From positions 28,552-92,551 of the forward strand of contig CASPWD010000005.1 of assembly GCA_949425635.1 (NCBI GenBank): 64,000 nt of DNA, given 5' to 3'. Made by a program: the position numbers and the translations under genes. Positions 602-40,595 of this stretch are shown here, piece after piece (the stretch's first letter is position 1; every line of letters starts with the position of its first letter). The notes under the pieces were generated by a model that saw only the letters and a program-made list of their open reading frames with translations, was not told where the DNA came from and searched no databases. The stretch comes from an uncultured Bacilli bacterium. Its GTDB lineage: Bacteria; Bacillota_I; Bacilli_A; RF39; UBA660.

Positions 602-1618
602 TTATAATATCCCTATTTTTTCTAATATATAGTCATCTATTCTTTTTATAATATAAGAACCAATAAATGTTATTATAAATATAATTATTATATAAACTGA
701 AGACGTAAATTTTATATCTAATAACTTAAGAAATAAAAAACTAACGTATTGAAACAAATATATTTCATAAGATATTTTCCCTATAAAATTAAGAATTTTA
801 TTTCCAAGATTCAATTTAACATTGATTTGCATAATAGTTATTAATATTATTATACTTAATATTATTTTTAACACATATTCTCCGTAGAAAAATACTGTTT
901 TATACTTTAGATAACATAATCCCATTATAAGCGAACAAATAACTAATAATACTGAATTCCTTTTATAATATTTCTTACATATTTCTAAAATCTTATCTTT
1001 CCTTCTATATATTAGAATGCCAAGAGCAAAACCGATTGATTCAGTTGGCCAACTTGCCACAAGTTTTAATTTCGTAAAATAATCAACAATGCTCAAAAGA
1101 ACAATAATTGTTACAATTAGGTAATCTTTGCTTCTTTCTGAAATTTTTATTTTATTCACTATATAAAATATAAGATAAAATAGAAGTAAAACCACAACCC
1201 ATCGATTAATATTAATTAATGATAAAAAAGTTATACTAAAATCATTATATACAATTTTTTTTAATACGTTTAGAATAATGTTTATTATTATTGCAGGAAG
1301 TAAAATCTTAGGTAATCTCTTTTTCCAAAAATCATTTAAATAATTTTTGTTTTTGCTTTTTGAAGTTTGTAACCCATATGCAGAGGATAAGAAGAAAAAT
1401 GTTACTCCTACACACGCGAAACTTCCTATAATATCTTGTATTTCATTTCCATACATATTTGGTATATGCACTAATACTACTACAAGCGAAAATATTCCTT
1501 TTATAATAGTTGTGTCTGACAAACTTAAAAAATCTTTTTTTTCTACATCATATTTCATTTGCCATATTATAATACCGAATAACAATCCGACAAATAAAAT
1601 CATTATTACATTATCCAT
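602..1618 (-). CDS. Acyltransferase family 3 integral membrane protein (putative polysaccharide O-acetyltransferase)
   Basis: 338 aa, highly hydrophobic with about 10 predicted TM segments. Sits inside a polysaccharide locus. Layout is typical of OatA/WecH-type acyltransferase_3. Confidence 0.65.
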   Translation of the reverse strand: MDNVIMILFVGLLFGIIIWQMKYDVEKKDFLSLSDTTIIKGIFSLVVVLVHIPNMYGNEIQDIIGSFACVGVTFFFLSSAYGLQTSKSKNKNYLNDFWKKRLPKILLPAIIINIILNVLKKIVYNDFSITFLSLININRWVVVLLLFYLIFYIVNKIKISERSKDYLIVTIIVLLSIVDYFTKLKLVASWPTESIGFALGILIYRRKDKILEICKKYYKRNSVLLVICSLIMGLCYLKYKTVFFYGEYVLKIILSIIILITIMQINVKLNLGNKILNFIGKISYEIYLFQYVSFLFLKLLDIKFTSSVYIIIIFIITFIGSYIIKRIDDYILEKIGIL

Positions 1619-1624
1619 TATTTT

Positions 1625-2815
1625 TTAATCCTTTTTATTCATTTGTTTTTCGATATCAGCATCAACGATTTCTTCACCTGATTTATTTTTTAATTGTTCT
1701 TTAGAGGCTTCTGATAAGCCATTATTTGCAACACAATTCATATCACATGTTGAACATTTATCTAGTTCTTCTTTAGTTACTTTACCATCTCTTAAGTCTC
1801 TAACAATTTTATTTTCATACATAGAATATTTTTTATTTGTCCAGAATTTTAATTTATGAGTTAAAACCCACCAAGCTGGTTTCCAAATATATTTATGCAT
1901 TGCAGGAGATACTGAACCAATCATCCAACATTGTCTATCGCAATGTCTAACTTTAAATCTTACTTCTTCAGCTTGTGCACTATTCCATAATTCTTCCCAT
2001 GTAGCACATTCATTTAAGTTACCCATAACTTCTTTATCTTTAGTGCCATTACATGGCATTACATCACCATATGGATCAATAAAGAATGTATCAAAAGCCA
2101 TATCACATGGGAGTAATCTTTTTTGTCCATAAACGTAATTAATTAGTCCATGATTAAAATATGCTCTAAACCATTTCTTTGGTGATTTAGAATTTAATAA
2201 TTCATTAACTAAATTTTCAAAGTTTTGTGCAACCATTGGTCTGTCATGAATAATATTTTTTGCTTCTACGAAGTAAAAGCTATTATGTAATGAAGCTGTA
2301 GCAAATTCCATATCCATTTCATTTGAAATATTGTATAAAGGAACTAAATCTGGAGCATTCTTATCTTGAACTGTCATACCAAATCCTACATCTTTCATTC
2401 CCATTTCTTTTAGTTTTTTTAGAGTTTCATAACCTCTTTTATAACCATCTTTTAATCCTCTAATTTCATTATTAGTATCTTCTAATCCTTCAATAGAAAT
2501 TCTGATACCAATGTTAGGGAATCTCTTTGCCATAGCTATAATTCTATCAGTAAAGAATCCATTTGTTGAAATAACAATTCTATCACTCTTCTTATATAAC
2601 TCTTCTACTACATCTTGTAAGTCTTCTCTAATAAATGGTTCTCCACCAGTTATATTAGTAAAATACATTTTAGGTAATTTCTTTATTGTTTCAATACTAA
2701 TCTCTTCTTCTGGTTTTGAAGGACATTTATATCTATTGCACATTGTACATCTAGCGTTGCATCTATATGTTACTATAACTGTTCCATTTAATTTTTTTTC
2801 TTTCATATTTTTCAC
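1625..2815 (-). CDS. Radical SAM enzyme with Cys-rich C-terminal (SPASM/twitch-like) region
   Basis: CxxxCxxC cluster 'CNARCTMC' near the N-terminus and a 'TGGEPF' SAM-binding motif. Downstream motif 'LLPCDMAFDTFFIDPYGDVMPCNG...C..C' plus further Cys residues (CSTCDMNC). Overlaps the upstream GT4 gene by 4 nt. Confidence 0.75.
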   Translation of the reverse strand: MKNMKEKKLNGTVIVTYRCNARCTMCNRYKCPSKPEEEISIETIKKLPKMYFTNITGGEPFIREDLQDVVEELYKKSDRIVISTNGFFTDRIIAMAKRFPNIGIRISIEGLEDTNNEIRGLKDGYKRGYETLKKLKEMGMKDVGFGMTVQDKNAPDLVPLYNISNEMDMEFATASLHNSFYFVEAKNIIHDRPMVAQNFENLVNELLNSKSPKKWFRAYFNHGLINYVYGQKRLLPCDMAFDTFFIDPYGDVMPCNGTKDKEVMGNLNECATWEELWNSAQAEEVRFKVRHCDRQCWMIGSVSPAMHKYIWKPAWWVLTHKLKFWTNKKYSMYENKIVRDLRDGKVTKEELDKCSTCDMNCVANNGLSEASKEQLKNKSGEEIVDADIEKQMNKKD

Positions 2816-11861: not shown

Positions 11862-12080
11862 TTAAAAAAGAGTAATTCCTCCAAAGGACGAATTACTCGT
11901 GTTACCACCTTATTTTGTGTATTACTACACCTCTACATCTTAACGCGATTAACGGAATATCTTGTATACAATATTCAACTCCAAAGTTTCTTCAATTAGT
12001 TTATATACTCTTTTACACCAGACAAGAGTTCTCTATGATATAAGGGCTAATTTACTCTTCTTTTTCCTCGTTTTGTGGTT
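11862..12080 (-). promoter_or_regulatory. T-box riboswitch leader (Glu specifier) with intrinsic terminator
   Basis: Minus-strand read shows a stem I with AGAGA and 'CTGGTG' distal-loop elements. The specifier region is 'AATTGAAGAAAC' (GAA). The T-box sequence is 'AAGGTGGTAACACG' (complement of 11898-11912). It overlaps the terminator GAGTAATTCGTCCTTTGGAGGAATTACTC + T6 (11865-11898). Confidence 0.8.
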
Positions 12081-21706: not shown

Positions 21707-22171
21707 TTAAATAACAAAATATTTATTATCAAAATATTCAATAAATTTTATTAAGTCGGTGTATTTAATAGATATGGTCTTAGTATTTGTATCTGGGTGC
21801 ATCAGTATTTTTTTACTTATCAATTCTTTATCAATGATTATTTTAGTTATATGAGATGAATCATTTATGATACCTAGAGGTGTTACTCCTCCTCTACTTA
21901 GTCCTAAGATATTATTGAGTTCTTTTTCACTAGCGAAGGTTAAATGTGACGTATTTAATTTTTTTGATAAATTCTTAAAGTCTGCTTTTTTAGTATCTTC
22001 TAATAAATATAAATAATAATTATTATTAGAATCTTTTAAAAATAAATTTTTGCATCCTACTCCATTATTCTTTTCTTTGATATGTTGAGCTTCTTTTGCT
22101 GTGTAAACTGGTTTGTGAACTATTTCTTCAAAAGATATATTAAGACTTTCTAAAATGTTGTAAATATTCAT
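21707..22171 (-). CDS. YbaK/ProX-type aminoacyl-tRNA deacylase domain protein
   Basis: Motifs 'CKNLFLKD' and 'GGVTPLG'. I place the start at MNIYNILE behind a GAAGGGA RBS. Confidence 0.65.
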   Translation of the reverse strand: MNIYNILESLNISFEEIVHKPVYTAKEAQHIKEKNNGVGCKNLFLKDSNNNYYLYLLEDTKKADFKNLSKKLNTSHLTFASEKELNNILGLSRGGVTPLGIINDSSHITKIIIDKELISKKILMHPDTNTKTISIKYTDLIKFIEYFDNKYFVI

Positions 22172-22261
22172 ATTAATACATCCCTTCAAATATAATAATA
22201 GCATAACATAAATATGTTGTTTTAGAAAAAATATAGTATAATAAGATTAGGAGGAGAAGTT

Positions 22262-22678
22262 ATGACAATTGTATGGTTAGTAATAGTTATTGCTTTAGCA
22301 GTTATTGAAGTAATGACAGTTAACTTAGTTACTGTTTGGTTTGTAGCTTCAGGTATAGTTGCATTAATTGCTGCTTATTTAGGAGCTTCAACTATTATAC
22401 AGCTAGCAATATTTGTTATATTAGGTGTTCTTCTATTGTTGTTAACAAAGAAACCTTTAGAAAAATTACTTAATAAGACAAATAAGCATAAGACTAATCT
22501 AGACCGAATTTTTGAAATGGAAGGTATTGTTACTGAAGAAATCAAAAAAGGTTCTACTGGAGAAGTTAAAGTTGATGGTAAAAGATGGACTGCTATTGCA
22601 GATAAGACAATCAAAAAAGATAGTACTGTAAAAATATTAAAAATTGATGGAGTAAAATTAGTTGTTGAGGAGGTATAA
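22262..22678 (+). CDS. NfeD-family membrane protein
   Basis: N-terminal TM segments plus a C-terminal OB-like 'GEVKVDGKRWTAIAD'. Lies immediately upstream of an SPFH gene, which is the classic pairing. Confidence 0.75.
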   Translation: MTIVWLVIVIALAVIEVMTVNLVTVWFVASGIVALIAAYLGASTIIQLAIFVILGVLLLLLTKKPLEKLLNKTNKHKTNLDRIFEMEGIVTEEIKKGSTGEVKVDGKRWTAIADKTIKKDSTVKILKIDGVKLVVEEV

Positions 22679-22683
22679 ACAAT

Positions 22684-23580
22684 ATGGAAATTTTAATCCC
22701 TATTCTAATTATTGTATTTATTGGTATAATCCTTTGTATTAAGGTAGTACCACAAGCTGAGGCTTATGTTATCGAACGTGTTGGTTCTTATTTAGAAACA
22801 TGGCAAAATGGATTACACTTTATGATTCCATTTATTGATCGTATTTCAAATAGATTAACATTAAAAGAAATCGTTAAAGATTTTAAACCACAACCAGTTA
22901 TTACTAAAGATAATGTTACTATGCAAATTGATACTGTAGTATATTATCAAATTACAGATCCTAAGTTATATACTTATGGTGTTGAAAATCCAATTACTGC
23001 AATTGAAAATTTAACCGCTACTACATTACGTAATATTATTGGTGAACTAGAGTTAGACCAAACTTTGACATCAAGAGATATTATTAATGCTAAGATGCGT
23101 TCTATCTTAGATGAAGCAACTGATCCTTGGGGAATCAAAATTAACAGAGTTGAAGTTAAGAATATTATTCCACCAAGAGATATTCAAGAAGCAATGGAAA
23201 AACAAATGCGTGCTGAACGTGAAAGACGTGAAAAAATTCTTCAAGCTGAAGGTGAAAAGAAATCAAGTATCTTAATTGCTGAAGGTGAAAAAGAAAGTGC
23301 TATTCTTAGAGCTGAAGCTAATAAAGAAGCAGCAATTAAAGTTGCTGAAGGTCAAGCTGAAGCAATTATAAAAATGAATCAAGCTGAAGCTGAAAGTATT
23401 AAATTACTTCGTGAAGCTAAGGCTGACCAATCTGTTATAACATTAAAGAGTTTAGAAGCTGTTGCTAAGATGGCTGACGGACAAGCTACTAAAATAATTG
23501 TTCCTTCTAATCTTCAAGATGTAGCTTCATTAGCTACGACTGTTGGTGAAATGCTAAAAGACGATAAAAAAACTAAATAA
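22684..23580 (+). CDS. SPFH/band-7 (stomatin/QmcA-like) protein
   Basis: N-terminal TM segment, an SPFH core ('VPQAEAYVIERVGSY...TKDNV...') and an Ala/Glu-rich coiled-coil tail. Confidence 0.85.
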   Translation: MEILIPILIIVFIGIILCIKVVPQAEAYVIERVGSYLETWQNGLHFMIPFIDRISNRLTLKEIVKDFKPQPVITKDNVTMQIDTVVYYQITDPKLYTYGVENPITAIENLTATTLRNIIGELELDQTLTSRDIINAKMRSILDEATDPWGIKINRVEVKNIIPPRDIQEAMEKQMRAERERREKILQAEGEKKSSILIAEGEKESAILRAEANKEAAIKVAEGQAEAIIKMNQAEAESIKLLREAKADQSVITLKSLEAVAKMADGQATKIIVPSNLQDVASLATTVGEMLKDDKKTK

Positions 23581-23648
23581 TATAAGTAAATTACAATAAT
23601 TAAATAACCATGTAGTTAAATGCTATATGGTTTTTATTTTAGATAATA

Positions 23649-23886
23649 TTGACAAAAGAAAAAAGATATTGTAGATTATGGGCAGAGACGCAAAAAGACT
23701 CTTGAAAGGAAATAAATATGAATTATCTTATGAATATGAATATTAGACGTAGACGTAGTTAGTCACCTATTTAAGTAATCATGTGAAGATTGCGGATATA
23801 GGTGTATTTAAGTATAGCTGTGTCTACAATCGGTAAGATAATTTTTTATATAATACCTATGTTGATGCAGCATAGGTATTTTTATT
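23649..23886 (+). promoter_or_regulatory. Promoter plus Arg-codon leader-peptide attenuator, copy 1
   Basis: Promoter: TTGACA (23649-54), 17 nt spacer, TAGATT (23672-77). An AAAGGA RBS precedes the leader ORF 23718-23762, MNYLMNMNIRRRRS* (AGA CGT AGA CGT). Segment 1 is CACCTAT (23764-70), segment 2 ATAGGTGT (23798-805), segment 3 ATACCTATG (23853-61) and segment 4 CATAGGTAT (23871-79), followed by a T-run. Segment 2 can pair with either segment 1 or segment 3, and 3:4 forms the terminator. Confidence 0.65.
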
Positions 23887-23887
23887 A

Positions 23888-24075
23888 TGAAATGAGATGA
23901 GTATATGAAAAATTTGATAATTAGTTATATGAATATGAGACGCAGACGTCGGTAGAACACCTATCAAGTAAATCAAAGTTGATTGAAGATATAGGTGTGT
24001 TTAAGTATGGCTGTATCTTCAAAAGTATAAGAAATTATTTATACCTATGTCGATATGGCATAGGTTTTTTATTTA
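23888..24075 (+). promoter_or_regulatory. Arg-codon leader-peptide attenuator, copy 2
   Basis: Leader ORF 23905-23955 encodes MKNLIISYMNMRRRRR* (AGA CGC AGA CGT CGG). Segment 1 is ACACCTAT (23957-64), segment 2 ATAGGTGT (23991-98), segment 3 ATACCTATG (24041-49) and segment 4 CATAGGT (24059-65), followed by T6. The architecture matches copy 1 and carries compensatory changes in an additional stem. Confidence 0.6.
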
Positions 24076-24093
24076 GAAAAGGAAGGTTTAAGT

Positions 24094-25158
24094 ATGAAAA
24101 AAGAAATTATAGATATTTTAAAAGAATTAATGAAATATAAGACTGTTAATGGAAGTTTGCAAGAGTTTGAAGGAATTTTTGAATATATAAAAAGTTATAT
24201 GAATAATGGACTTTATTATAATGAGTATGTTTTTAATGAGAATAAAGCTTGTGTTATTTCTAATTATGATGGAAATGAATTTGATGTAGTTTTCTCTACT
24301 CATATAGATGTTGTTCCAGCTAGTAGTTATGAGTATAGTGAAGATGATAAAAATATTTATGGTCGTGGAACGATAGATATGAAAGGAAGTGTGGCCGTTT
24401 TATTAAAACTATTTAATGATATAGAAACAAATAAAAGGATTGCCCTATTTATTACTTCTGACGAAGAACAAGATGGTAATTGTACTTATGAGTTATTAAA
24501 AATTTATAAAACAAAATTGGCTATTGTACCAGATGGTGGAACTCATTTTAATTTAATTAATGAAGAAAAAGGACTATTAAGATTAAAATTAAGTATAAAA
24601 ACAAAATCTGCTCACTCATCTCAACCATTTAATGGCGTAAATGCAATATGTGAACTTGTTGATGTTTATAAAAAGATAATAAAGAAGTACCAATTGCCTA
24701 AGTCTGACAAAGAATATATTACTTCTGTAAATTTAGCAAAATTTGTTGGTGGAGATGCGTTAAATAAGATTGCTGATTATGCCGAAATGTATTTGGATAT
24801 TAGACATATTAAGAAAGATACTAAAGAAAACATAATCGAGTTTATAAAAAAGATAAATAAAGATGTTAAATTAGAAATATTACTTGAAGGTGATGTTTTT
24901 GAGACAAATTTAGATAATGAGGAGATAAAAAGATATATTGAGATTTGTGAAAGTATTTTAAAAAGAAAGATAACTATAGTAGGATGTGAATCTACTTCGG
25001 ATGCAATATATTTTTCAAATCTAGGAATACCTACTATTATTATGAATCCAGATGGCTATTATGCACATTGTCCCAATGAATATGTTAGTAAAGAAAGTCT
25101 TGTTTATTTATTTAAAATTTATAAAGAATTTATAGAAGGCGGTGATATTAATGGATAA
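24094..25158 (+). CDS. M20-family metallopeptidase/deacylase (ArgE/DapE-like)
   Basis: Motifs 'THIDVVP', 'GRGTIDMKG', 'TSDEE' and 'AHSS'. 354 aa. Confidence 0.8.
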   Translation: MKKEIIDILKELMKYKTVNGSLQEFEGIFEYIKSYMNNGLYYNEYVFNENKACVISNYDGNEFDVVFSTHIDVVPASSYEYSEDDKNIYGRGTIDMKGSVAVLLKLFNDIETNKRIALFITSDEEQDGNCTYELLKIYKTKLAIVPDGGTHFNLINEEKGLLRLKLSIKTKSAHSSQPFNGVNAICELVDVYKKIIKKYQLPKSDKEYITSVNLAKFVGGDALNKIADYAEMYLDIRHIKKDTKENIIEFIKKINKDVKLEILLEGDVFETNLDNEEIKRYIEICESILKRKITIVGCESTSDAIYFSNLGIPTIIMNPDGYYAHCPNEYVSKESLVYLFKIYKEFIEGGDING

Positions 25159-25870
25159 TGAAAAATTTTTTAAAGCAATATATAATGATAAAAGCGAATT
25201 ACAAATATGGAAAAAATTAGATAATGGATGTTATATTGGTACTTTAGGATATTCTGAGAAAAATATTAATATATTAATTAATCTTTTAAAATCATTTGAG
25301 GAACAATATGGTGAAAAAATCGATTATGAAGCTGCTAAGGATGAGCTTATGTTATATCAAAATAAAGGAAAATTATTTGTTTACTTTAATAAAGATGGCT
25401 TGCCTATTTCGATGAACGGATGTGTTTATGATTATGATAACGATACTGTGGAATTTAAGAGTGATAATAAAGACAATTTAAAATCGATCTATTTTTATGG
25501 CTTATCAACATTAAAAGCCTACAGAGGTCATGGAGCATGTAAAGAGTTAATAAAATTTGCAATAGAGTTTGCCAAGTTTAATGGATTTGATTATGTATAT
25601 GCAAGGACTGACTTAGTTAATTCTAATTCAGAATGGATTATGGCGAATGCAGGTATGGAAATTTGTTTAAACGGCAATTATATTATTGCTGAATGGGTTG
25701 ATGTTACTGAAAATATTGGTGATTACAGATTACATATGTGGAAAGCTTTAACAGATGGAATTTATTTGGCTCCTAAAGATAAAGCCCTTTTCGCTTATAA
25801 TGATAGTTTAAGAAATATAGTACCAATTTTTGATTGCTCCCCTACTGGTTTTGTAAAGAGAAAAAATTAG
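25151..25870 (+). CDS. GNAT-like N-acetyltransferase (putative)
   Basis: 'YFYGLSTLKAYRGHGACKELIKFAIEFAK' fits GNAT motif A (R-x-x-G-x-G/A). Overlaps the end of the M20 gene. Start could be ATG 25151 or GTG 25142. Confidence 0.5.
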   Translation: MDNEKFFKAIYNDKSELQIWKKLDNGCYIGTLGYSEKNINILINLLKSFEEQYGEKIDYEAAKDELMLYQNKGKLFVYFNKDGLPISMNGCVYDYDNDTVEFKSDNKDNLKSIYFYGLSTLKAYRGHGACKELIKFAIEFAKFNGFDYVYARTDLVNSNSEWIMANAGMEICLNGNYIIAEWVDVTENIGDYRLHMWKALTDGIYLAPKDKALFAYNDSLRNIVPIFDCSPTGFVKRKN

Positions 25871-25893
25871 TAGTAACTTAGGAATCTAGGCAT

Positions 25894-25930
25894 TTAACAT
25901 ACAATATATGAAATTGTATGTTAATTTTTT
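25894..25930 (+). terminator. Intrinsic terminator of the M20-GNAT operon
   Basis: TTAACATACAAT-ATATGAA-ATTGTATGTTAA followed by T6. Confidence 0.8.
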
Positions 25931-25943
25931 AAAATTTTTTTAA

Positions 25944-27023
<1,080 letters not shown>

Positions 27024-40469: not shown

Positions 40470-40595
40470 AAATAAAAACACCCAAGATAACTTTCTTGAG
40501 TGTAAAAGCTATCTTATCGTACTAGCATTACCACCTAATTTAATAGGTTGGTGCGACTTCTTAGGGCTAGTCCCTCCATCGCTCTTTATAAGATG
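40470..40595 (-). promoter_or_regulatory. SAM-I (S-box) riboswitch with terminator
   Basis: Minus-strand read is CTTATAAAGAGCGATGGAGGGACTAGCCCTAAGAAGTCGCACCAACC...GGTGGTAATGCTAGTACGATAAG, showing the S-box blocks GAGGGA, GCCC, AAGAA, CAACC and GGTG.TAA. It is followed by the terminator CACTCAAGAAAGTTATCTTGGGTG + T5. Confidence 0.85.

Follow-up and report, generated by a model that had tools for sequence, protein, structure and literature searches.

A leader region in a 64-kb stretch of DNA from an uncultured Bacilli bacterium (contig CASPWD010000005.1) most probably consists of two transcription attenuators in tandem, which depend on the ribosome and respond to the charging of tRNA-Arg. The whole stretch is referred to here as the window and positions are given in its coordinates; the leader under study occupies 23649-24093, ahead of a gene pair encoding an M20-family deacylase and a GNAT acetyltransferase. 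The anatomy of the element is conserved among relatives, its helices covary, the spacing between codons and RNA strands is maintained, the regulatory codons are swapped in a paralogous operon, and Arg T-boxes are associated with it at several loci. A first-pass annotation of this DNA had also arrived at tandem, ribosome-mediated attenuators with Arg codons. That interpretation is partly supported, being right in kind and wrong in wiring.

Architecture of the tandem leader

The leader comprises one promoter-like site followed by two homologous units of about 190 nucleotides (nt) each. The promoter-like site (TTGACA, a 17-nt spacer and TAGATT; 23649-23677, on the plus strand like all leader features described here) was found by a consensus scan with 10 of 12 matches, and a similar TTGACAAA...TAGATTATGG is readable 5' of the leader in close relatives (loci L002 and L003). 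Unit 1 has a Shine-Dalgarno (SD) sequence, GAAAGGAA (23704-23711), 6 nt ahead of the ATG of leader open reading frame (ORF) 1. This ORF (23718-23762) encodes MNYLMNMNIRRRRS before its stop codon, with the Arg run AGA CGT AGA CGT at 23745-23756. Leader ORF 2 (23905-23955) encodes MKNLIISYMNMRRRRR, and its run, AGA CGC AGA CGT CGG, lies at 23938-23952.

Each ORF is followed by a short strand, CACCTAT, here termed seg0. It lies at 23764-23770 in unit 1 (+4 to +10 from the stop codon), where its partner is the top of the 5' arm of the hairpin P2 (ATAGGTG), and at 23958-23964 in unit 2, where it is supported by covariation of the family helix. A small hairpin, P1b, comes next: in unit 1 (GTAATC...GATTGC, 23775-23793) it is present in the minimum free energy fold and extends with its 3' half into the base of the P2 5' arm, and folding of unit 2 places it at 23971-23984 (AATCAA...TTGATT). 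P2 spans 23790-23829 in unit 1 (arms 23790-23806 and 23813-23829) and 23983-24022 in unit 2 (arms 23983-23999 and 24006-24022), with family covariation in both cases, and the motif ATAGGTGT is found within 23790-23806 and 23983-23999. The units end in intrinsic terminators. The first, at 23852-23888, has a 13-bp stem (23852-23880; family helix covariation) and the U-run TTTATTAT, while the second, at 24041-24074, has its stem at 24043-24065 and the U-run TTTTTATTT. Three terminator-like sites occur in the 900 nt scanned, against 0.1 expected.

The two units are 80% identical in pairwise alignment, and none of the 200 dinucleotide shuffles made for either unit folds as well as the original (z -4.25 and -4.33). 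The origin of the tandem arrangement by duplication of a single unit is supported. The promoter, the two homologous units, the ORFs, CACCTAT, ATAGGTGT and the terminators named in the first-pass annotation are all present in the sequence at these positions, and each unit does end in an intrinsic terminator with competing helices, as it had claimed. Its remark on CGC and CGG codons holds for unit 2, to which both are confined; unit 1 uses AGA and CGT only. Compensatory changes that it had seen between the two copies of a further stem, the lower part of P2, come down to one C.A mismatch and two wobble pairs.

No described RNA family accounts for the region. An Rfam covariance scan of 22000-26000 (E <= 10) returned chance-level matches to unrelated families only, a scan of the whole window at the gathering score gave no match in the leader region, and no T-box match, with the Stem I and specifier loop or the UGGNACC antiterminator bulge that characterise these elements, was obtained in 23600-24100.

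Conservation among relatives

Species-representative genomes were scanned for orthologues with an M20 alignment. About 58 orthologous loci were found (M20 protein identity 44-68%) in metagenome-assembled genomes of uncultured gut Bacilli or 'Tenericutes', for example Candidatus Coprovivens and Clostridium sp. CAG:1193, and in most of them RRR or RRRR is encoded by a short ORF 150-250 nt upstream. A covariance model (R1) built from 49 units found 63 units in 57 of the 58 orthologous loci, solely 5' of the M20/GNAT operon, and matched the window exactly twice (82 and 78 bits). The element thus recurs in relatives, a point that the first-pass annotation had wanted checked by a covariance search. 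At loci where the GNAT gene stands ahead of the M20 gene, the unit sits 5' of GNAT. Since it precedes whichever gene is first, the unit is a feature of the two-gene operon as a whole. Three lineages have tandem pairs, represented by the window, by L024/L078/L100 and by L039/L041/L048.

A pattern scan of metagenome contigs added 16 further Arg-type units, and those with sufficient downstream sequence again lie 5' of M20/GNAT, with L089 as the sole exception. About half of the 32 metagenome pattern matches had neither a leader ORF nor a model match and were treated as chance. Downstream of the L089 unit (1551-1696, minus strand; 113.8 bits; peptide MKIFMTNIIRRRRLRRHL...) are two ORFs, of 298 and >197 amino acids (aa), without M20 or GNAT similarity. 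The locus may have been rearranged, or the unit may here regulate genes of a second kind.

Leader peptides and their arginine codons

Leader ORFs, spacings, duplex energies and mask foldings were evaluated in 62 analysed units. In all 62, an SD-like motif precedes an ATG, and a run of two to five Arg codons follows in the same frame. The leader ORFs contain no in-frame stop despite a G+C content of about 27%. The leader ORFs therefore look translated, as had been proposed from the window alone. At homologous positions of the run, AGA alternates with CGT, CGC or CGA, so that up to three bases differ and Arg is retained. Every run combines AGA with CGN codons, and CGC makes up 22% of run codons compared with 2.3% in the window's long ORFs. 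Such a mixture would suit a sensor that uses codons in poor supply to probe both families of tRNA-Arg.

Outside the run, the peptides are poorly conserved and vary in length from 11 to 21 aa. An element of the fungal arginine attenuator peptide (AAP) type does not fit the units, as the conserved peptide that it requires is absent outside the Arg run. One or two Asn codons (AAC or AAT) very often precede the run (NNRRR, e.g. L023, L030, L039 and L048), and Asn codons trail the run (HHHNN) in the His-type leaders described below. These Asn codons might be stalling tuners or a second hungry-codon site.

A relay of five strands

Across relatives, the positions of P2 and the terminator are 92.5% paired, and 18 of 25 pairs are changed on both sides. 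The terminator helix taken separately reaches 93.9% pairing, with changes to both partners in 10 of its 11 pairs, and true compensatory changes in lower P2 appear only once relatives are included. A further helix is formed between seg0 and the 5' arm of P2. In most units seg0 reads CACTTG, rather than the CACCTAT of the window, and the helix varies accordingly (CACTTG:CAAGTG, TACTTG:CAAGTA, CGCTTG:CAAGCG and CACCT:AGGTG). Its pairing reaches 93.8%, and both partners have changed in 5 of its 7 pairs. P1b, which lies between seg0 and P2 and shares its 3' half with the base of the P2 5' arm, is 84% paired and also shows compensatory changes; the counts for these two helices come from a MAFFT alignment that was not fitted to structure.

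The 3' arm of P2 is in turn complementary to the 5' arm, the loop and the early 3' arm of the terminator (mean -16.2 kcal/mol, z -4.2). By duplex energy, this is the stronger of two candidate antiterminators in 60 of the 62 units. Its register is clade-specific, being TGCTTGTAT:ATACAAGCA, ATCTACAT:ATGTAGAT or ATCTGTATAG:CTATGCAGAT, and in a fixed register on the MAFFT alignment only 66.7% of positions are paired. Because the register depends on the clade and the terminator loops align poorly, a register-free duplex search was used instead. Complementarity to the P2 3' arm would also explain why the terminator loop is conserved. The first-pass annotation had treated the further stem as an accessory. 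Judged by these comparisons, the stem is P2 and appears to be the central anti-antiterminator hairpin of the element.

In the window, the duplex of the P2 3' arm with the terminator reaches -17.4 kcal/mol in unit 1 and -11.8 kcal/mol in unit 2. The seg0:P2-5' helix together with P1b amounts to -14.8 and -12.8 kcal/mol, compared with -13.9 and -15.5 kcal/mol for P2 alone. As the former is about as stable as P2 and is transcribed first, a kinetic preference for it is plausible whenever seg0 is free. The region of the Arg run can also pair with the P2 3' arm, although weakly (mean -9.7 kcal/mol, z -1.6; z < -2 in 31 of 62 units), and this pairing is a possible state of the leader when no ribosome is present rather than a firm feature.

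Ribosome position and predicted choice of fold

The distance between the codon run and the first strand is tightly constrained. The start of seg0 lies 16-24 nt past the first Arg codon (modes 17 and 20) and, in 41 of the 62 units, 11-12 nt past the last one. Stop codons fall into two classes, one 2-7 nt ahead of seg0 and the other 15-19 nt past its start, 7-13 nt ahead of P2. According to toeprinting and helicase mapping, the ribosome footprint extends about 15 nt upstream and 11 nt downstream of the first base in the A-site. With these values, a ribosome on the Arg run would leave seg0 free, and a ribosome at either class of stop codon would cover it. The spacing thus speaks against masking of the first segment by the stalled ribosome.

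Full-length equilibrium foldings with a ribosome mask discriminated poorly and were replaced by a snapshot before terminator closure, in which the leader was folded to just before the terminator can close and the footprint was forced unpaired. With the A-site on Arg codon 1, 13.2 antiterminator base pairs (bp) formed, and at least 6 bp in 56 of 62 units. With the ribosome at the stop codon, the value fell to 2.8 bp and P2 accounted for 9.0 bp. Without a ribosome it was 4.7 bp, a low value that is due to pairing of the ORF region with the P2 3' arm. The two units of the window behave in the same way (Arg codon 1 versus stop: 13.9 versus 0.0 bp in unit 1, 10.1 versus 2.3 bp in unit 2), and the result for Arg codon 1 is robust to the assumed leading edge of the ribosome. 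When the mask was moved codon by codon, the antiterminator was kept up to Arg codon 3 and lost one or two codons further on (+2 versus +3/+4). The Arg run would therefore fill the last positions that still permit read-through.

The spacing also bears on the alternative that comes closest to explaining the leader, which is the wiring given in the first-pass annotation. There, the element is a classical four-segment attenuator: the stalled ribosome masks CACCTAT, a ATAGGTGT:ATACCTAT duplex antiterminates and P2 is an accessory stem. In its favour, the ATAGGTGT:ATACCTAT duplex is strong in the two units of the window (-12.8 and -14.7 kcal/mol; z about -4), and CACCTAT follows the last Arg codon there at a distance of only 8-10 nt. 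Among 48 distinct relatives, however, this pairing is at shuffle level (60.1%, and 59.5% after shuffling), 36-44 of the 48 sequences break three of its eight pairs, and its mean energy across the family is -6.4 kcal/mol (z -0.5), so that the signal is peculiar to the window's two copies. Transcription reaches the 3' arm of P2 about 30 nt ahead of the terminator 5' arm, and the former would be the first to take ATAGGTGT. CACCTAT is covered more fully by a ribosome at the stop codon than by a stalled one, and no difference between starved and fed cells is then predicted. Nor does this wiring explain why the terminator loop is conserved, why P2 covaries and why the spacings of 11-12 and 17-20 nt are fixed. 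As an account of the element this wiring is unlikely. It is rejected as a feature of the family and kept as a possible local contribution.

Arg T-boxes and a histidine version

Two further observations connect the codon run to tRNA charging. Firstly, in five loci an Rfam T-box (98-121 bits), with the specifier CGC or CGU followed by the conserved purine, lies directly 5' of the Arg unit (L009, 3260-3439; L010, 121-300; L013, 3624-3806; L035, 3628-3807; L051, 3620-3799). A T-box and a leader-peptide unit would together form a hybrid tandem, in which two different sensors of tRNA-Arg charging share one leader. A further T-box, at L050 (2880-3161, about 840 nt 5' of an M20 homologue), has the specifier UGG (Trp) and was set aside as lying outside the Arg system.

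Secondly, a paralogous operon of M20 (about 29% identity) and a small GNAT gene has the same RNA scaffold upstream, with His codons replacing the Arg codons. The peptides of this type (MLNIVLNYHHHINLHLFLRH, MFQSKRYFHHHNNLHLLIRH and MFRVIHRHNNLHLLIRH) have HHH, HRH, HH or HSH at the position of the Arg run, and the distance to seg0, which is 17 nt when counted from the first His codon and 11 nt when counted from the last, is the same as in Arg units. His-type units were located at L107 (6643-6779), L110/L111 (about 2300-2490), L112/L113, L082 (8396-8522, minus strand) and L091 (7880-8015), and most stand 5' of an operon encoding the paralogous M20 (351 aa) and a small GNAT (170-176 aa). A swap of codons on a fixed scaffold is what would be expected of regulatory codons, and is hard to explain by an untranslated RNA motif or by peptide-specific arrest. 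Together with the retention of Arg across AGA and CGN codons and with the Arg T-boxes, the His swap on an identical scaffold identifies the codon run as the probable sensor.

Individual loci show further features. At L091, the His-type unit is followed by other genes, for a PRTase-like protein (228 aa) and a protein of 181 aa. Two His-type units have a tRNA gene 150-200 nt on their 5' side (L107, 6429-6499; L082, 8639-8711). A further M20 paralogue, at L114 (2501-4555), stands ahead of a gene for a class-Ib aminoacyl-tRNA synthetase (PF00579, 328 aa). Each of the M20 paralogues of these bacteria may be linked to a single amino acid, and it could be speculated that their wiring to Arg, His and possibly Trp reflects amino-acid-specific salvage or processing.

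These observations also weigh on accounts in which something other than charged tRNA-Arg is sensed. A translated leader could respond to another cue, as a polybasic arrest peptide, as an AAP-like sensor of free arginine or as a sensor of translation stress or antibiotics. Runs of basic residues and rare CGN codons can themselves slow ribosomes, and the Asn codons of NNRRR might hint at a peptide context. Against this, the peptide is poorly conserved outside the run, the scaffold also occurs with His codons in the paralogous operon, a reader of uncharged tRNA-Arg is placed in series at five loci, and every run samples both Arg codon families, as a sensor of tRNA charging would. Such a cue is a slightly poorer prospect than the four-segment wiring. 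It is less probable still that the leader is an untranslated structured RNA, that is a riboswitch or a protein-binding leader, whose Arg codons are a by-product of a pairing motif, AGACGYAGA. The CGY-AGA alternation does resemble the base of the P2 5' arm (CGYAGAT), and the capacity of the Arg-run region to pair with the P2 3' arm, seen in roughly half of the units, would fit such a motif. Neither point accounts for an SD sequence and an ATG in frame with the run in every unit, for the open frame at low G+C, for the retention of Arg across multi-base AGA/CGN synonymous switches or for His codons at the same position in paralogues, and no Rfam family matches. Equally remote is an inverted sign, in which starvation terminates and plentiful arginine reads through as for a catabolic or detoxifying operon: the function of the genes cannot fix the physiological sign, but mask folding gives the antiterminator on the Arg run and P2 once the ribosome is past it, and the serial T-boxes read through on uncharged tRNA, so that opposite signs would always shut the operon.

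Several results weigh against attenuation by tRNA-Arg charging through the five-strand relay. The SD sequence of unit 2 is weak (GAGATGAG, 23894-23901). In the window, the duplex of ATAGGTGT with the terminator 5' arm (-12.8 and -14.7 kcal/mol) is as strong as the family antiterminator (-17.4 and -11.8 kcal/mol), and the local wiring could be mixed. The prediction for the last Arg codon varies with the assumed footprint, and at the window's spacing of 8-10 nt seg0 would be partly covered. At full-length equilibrium the terminator is favoured even with an Arg-stalled ribosome (mean P(terminator) 0.70-0.77); the shift is in the expected direction and modest, and the two units of the window are unchanged because their terminators are very stable. 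As the terminator wins at equilibrium, the model leans on co-transcriptional kinetics, and the decision would have to fall during transcription, as it does in all attenuators. Lastly, the NCBIfam, PDB and Foldseek matches of the regulated enzymes are generic and do not tie them to arginine.

Proposed mechanism

In the mechanism that we infer for tRNA-Arg-dependent attenuation, ribosome stalling and the kinetic order of folding would set the outcome at each unit. A single promoter would produce a leader transcript with two copies of one unit, each made up of five strands, namely seg0, the 5' and 3' arms of P2 and the 5' and 3' arms of the terminator. P2 and the terminator would form the stop state. 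The read-through state would combine the seg0:P2-5' helix, P1b, which occupies the base of the P2 5' arm, and the duplex of the P2 3' arm with the terminator.

When charged Arg-tRNA is scarce, the ribosome would stall on the AGA/CGN run with seg0 free just past its leading edge. Free seg0 would capture the P2 5' arm as it is transcribed, and the released P2 3' arm would pair with the 5' arm and loop of the terminator, allowing RNA polymerase to read through. When Arg-tRNA is plentiful, the ribosome would reach the stop codon and cover seg0, so that P2 and then the terminator could form and transcription would end. Without a ribosome, the ORF region would pair with the P2 3' arm and the terminator would again be favoured. 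The sign of regulation is most likely that a low level of charged tRNA-Arg switches on the M20 deacylase/GNAT pair. Two units in series, or an Arg T-box and one unit, would be expected to give a lower basal level and a sharper response.

A broader reading, which we consider about evenly balanced, is that uncultured gut Bacilli possess a modular, codon-programmable scaffold. The relay of seg0, P2 and terminator would be re-used with Arg or His codons at a fixed distance from seg0, a stalled ribosome exposing and an unstalled ribosome masking the first strand. Each version would control its own M20 and GNAT paralogues and thereby an unrecognised, amino-acid-specific salvage or processing system, induced by the matching uncharged tRNA and sometimes placed in series with a T-box for the same tRNA.

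Relation to known attenuators

RNA-level sensing of amino acids in Firmicutes is dominated by T-boxes. No arginine leader-peptide attenuator was found in the literature searched or in Rfam, and neither tandem leader-peptide attenuators nor hybrids of a T-box and a leader peptide were found in the literature searched. Classical attenuators are listed in that literature for His, Thr, Phe, Trp, Leu and Ile/Val, with arginine assigned to T-boxes (PMC1262725). By its predicted structure, the element falls within the class of leader-peptide attenuators and matches no described family. The arginine version, the wiring and the spread through uncultured gut Bacilli appear to be undescribed.

The resemblance to trpL, hisL, pheL, thrL, leuL and ilvL is close: all have an SD-led short ORF, a run of regulatory codons, mutually exclusive helices and an intrinsic terminator, and the position of the ribosome, which picks the fold in these leaders, is predicted to do so in the present element too. 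A relay of more than four strands is shared with hisL. Unlike these Proteobacterial leaders, the element senses arginine according to the reading preferred here, gives no match to the Rfam leader families (Trp_leader, His_leader, Leu_leader, Thr_leader, Phe_leader and others), resides in uncultured gut Bacilli and occurs in tandem duplication or in combination with a T-box. It also departs from the trp paradigm in having an extra strand and, as proposed here, in that a stalled ribosome exposes the first strand and a passing ribosome masks it.

Ribosome-mediated attenuation has a precedent among Firmicutes. In Listeria monocytogenes, Rli60 is an attenuator of the ilv-leu operon with a 13-aa leader peptide rich in regulatory codons (PMC5864092). 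As in the present element, the leader peptide is followed by antiterminator and terminator hairpins. Rli60 differs in that it responds to branched-chain amino acids, has the classical 2:3/3:4 wiring, is present as a single copy and regulates a biosynthetic operon, and the two are unrelated in sequence. Arg T-boxes (RF00230) would share with the element the signal, uncharged tRNA-Arg, and the terminator/antiterminator output, and in five loci they share the operon as well. There, the T-box is a separate, serial element, and it binds tRNA directly, so that translation is not needed.

Consecutive Arg codons are used as a sensor in the Salmonella speF leader, where ribosome pausing in orf34 at low arginine selects the fold of the mRNA (PMC6386406). 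That leader acts through Rho-dependent termination, sequestration of the ribosome-binding site and RNase G sensitivity rather than through an intrinsic terminator. Its two Arg codons lie in a longer, conserved peptide, and it is Enterobacterial and shows no homology to the units described here. Tandem riboswitches and T-boxes, such as the Bacillus subtilis thrZ leader, join two terminator-based sensors of one signal, from which a lower basal level and a sharper response are expected. The repeated sensor differs here, as it is a translated leader-peptide attenuator.

If the proposed mechanism is true, ribosome-mediated attenuation is widespread in a large clade of uncultured gut Bacilli. The family would then also constitute an unusually clean natural experiment, in which one scaffold is fitted with Arg or His codons and sometimes placed in series with a T-box for the same tRNA. 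Its wiring is a testable variation on the textbook model of attenuation. The element flags the M20 deacylase/GNAT pair as arginine-responsive, and its paralogues as histidine-responsive, which offers a lead on amino-acid salvage in auxotrophic gut bacteria with reduced genomes. The scaffold could also serve synthetic biology as a compact, codon-programmable sensor part.

Regulated genes and surroundings

The first gene downstream of the leader encodes an M20-family deacylase (ArgE/DapE family; 354 aa; 24094-25158, plus strand; Pfam PF01546 and PF07687). The second encodes a GNAT acetyltransferase of 239 aa (25151-25870, plus strand; Pfam PF00583; identical to database protein P0241), which probably starts at ATG 25151 rather than at GTG 25142. 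The GNAT gene shares the last 8 nt of the M20 gene, and this overlap suggests translational coupling.

An ArgE-like/GNAT pair had been named in the first-pass annotation. The assignment to the M20 and GNAT families stands, and an arginine-biosynthetic role does not follow from it. In NCBIfam, the M20 protein scores far below every ArgE and DapE equivalog cut-off, and no arg genes lie nearby in the gene neighbourhoods examined, which vary between loci. In a PDB sequence search, its nearest solved structures are 2rb7 (the closest, of unknown function), ArgE and DapE. The AlphaFold model of the GNAT protein has a pLDDT of 91.9, and Foldseek matches it best to N-alpha-acetyltransferases and to further GNATs that act on small molecules, none of them specific. 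The association with Arg T-boxes and the His version on a paralogue may imply amino-acid-specific roles for the M20/GNAT pair.

Directly 3' of the GNAT gene, at 25950-27023, lies a gene for a collagen triple-helix repeat protein (PF01391) similar to the adhesins Scl and Lcl. Elsewhere in the window, a T-box leader is found at 11881-12077 (minus strand, 124 bits) and a SAM-I (S-box) riboswitch aptamer at 40511-40594 (minus strand, 63.6 bits). Together with a G+C content of 27%, the T-box and the SAM riboswitch mark the window as DNA of a typical low-G+C Firmicute.

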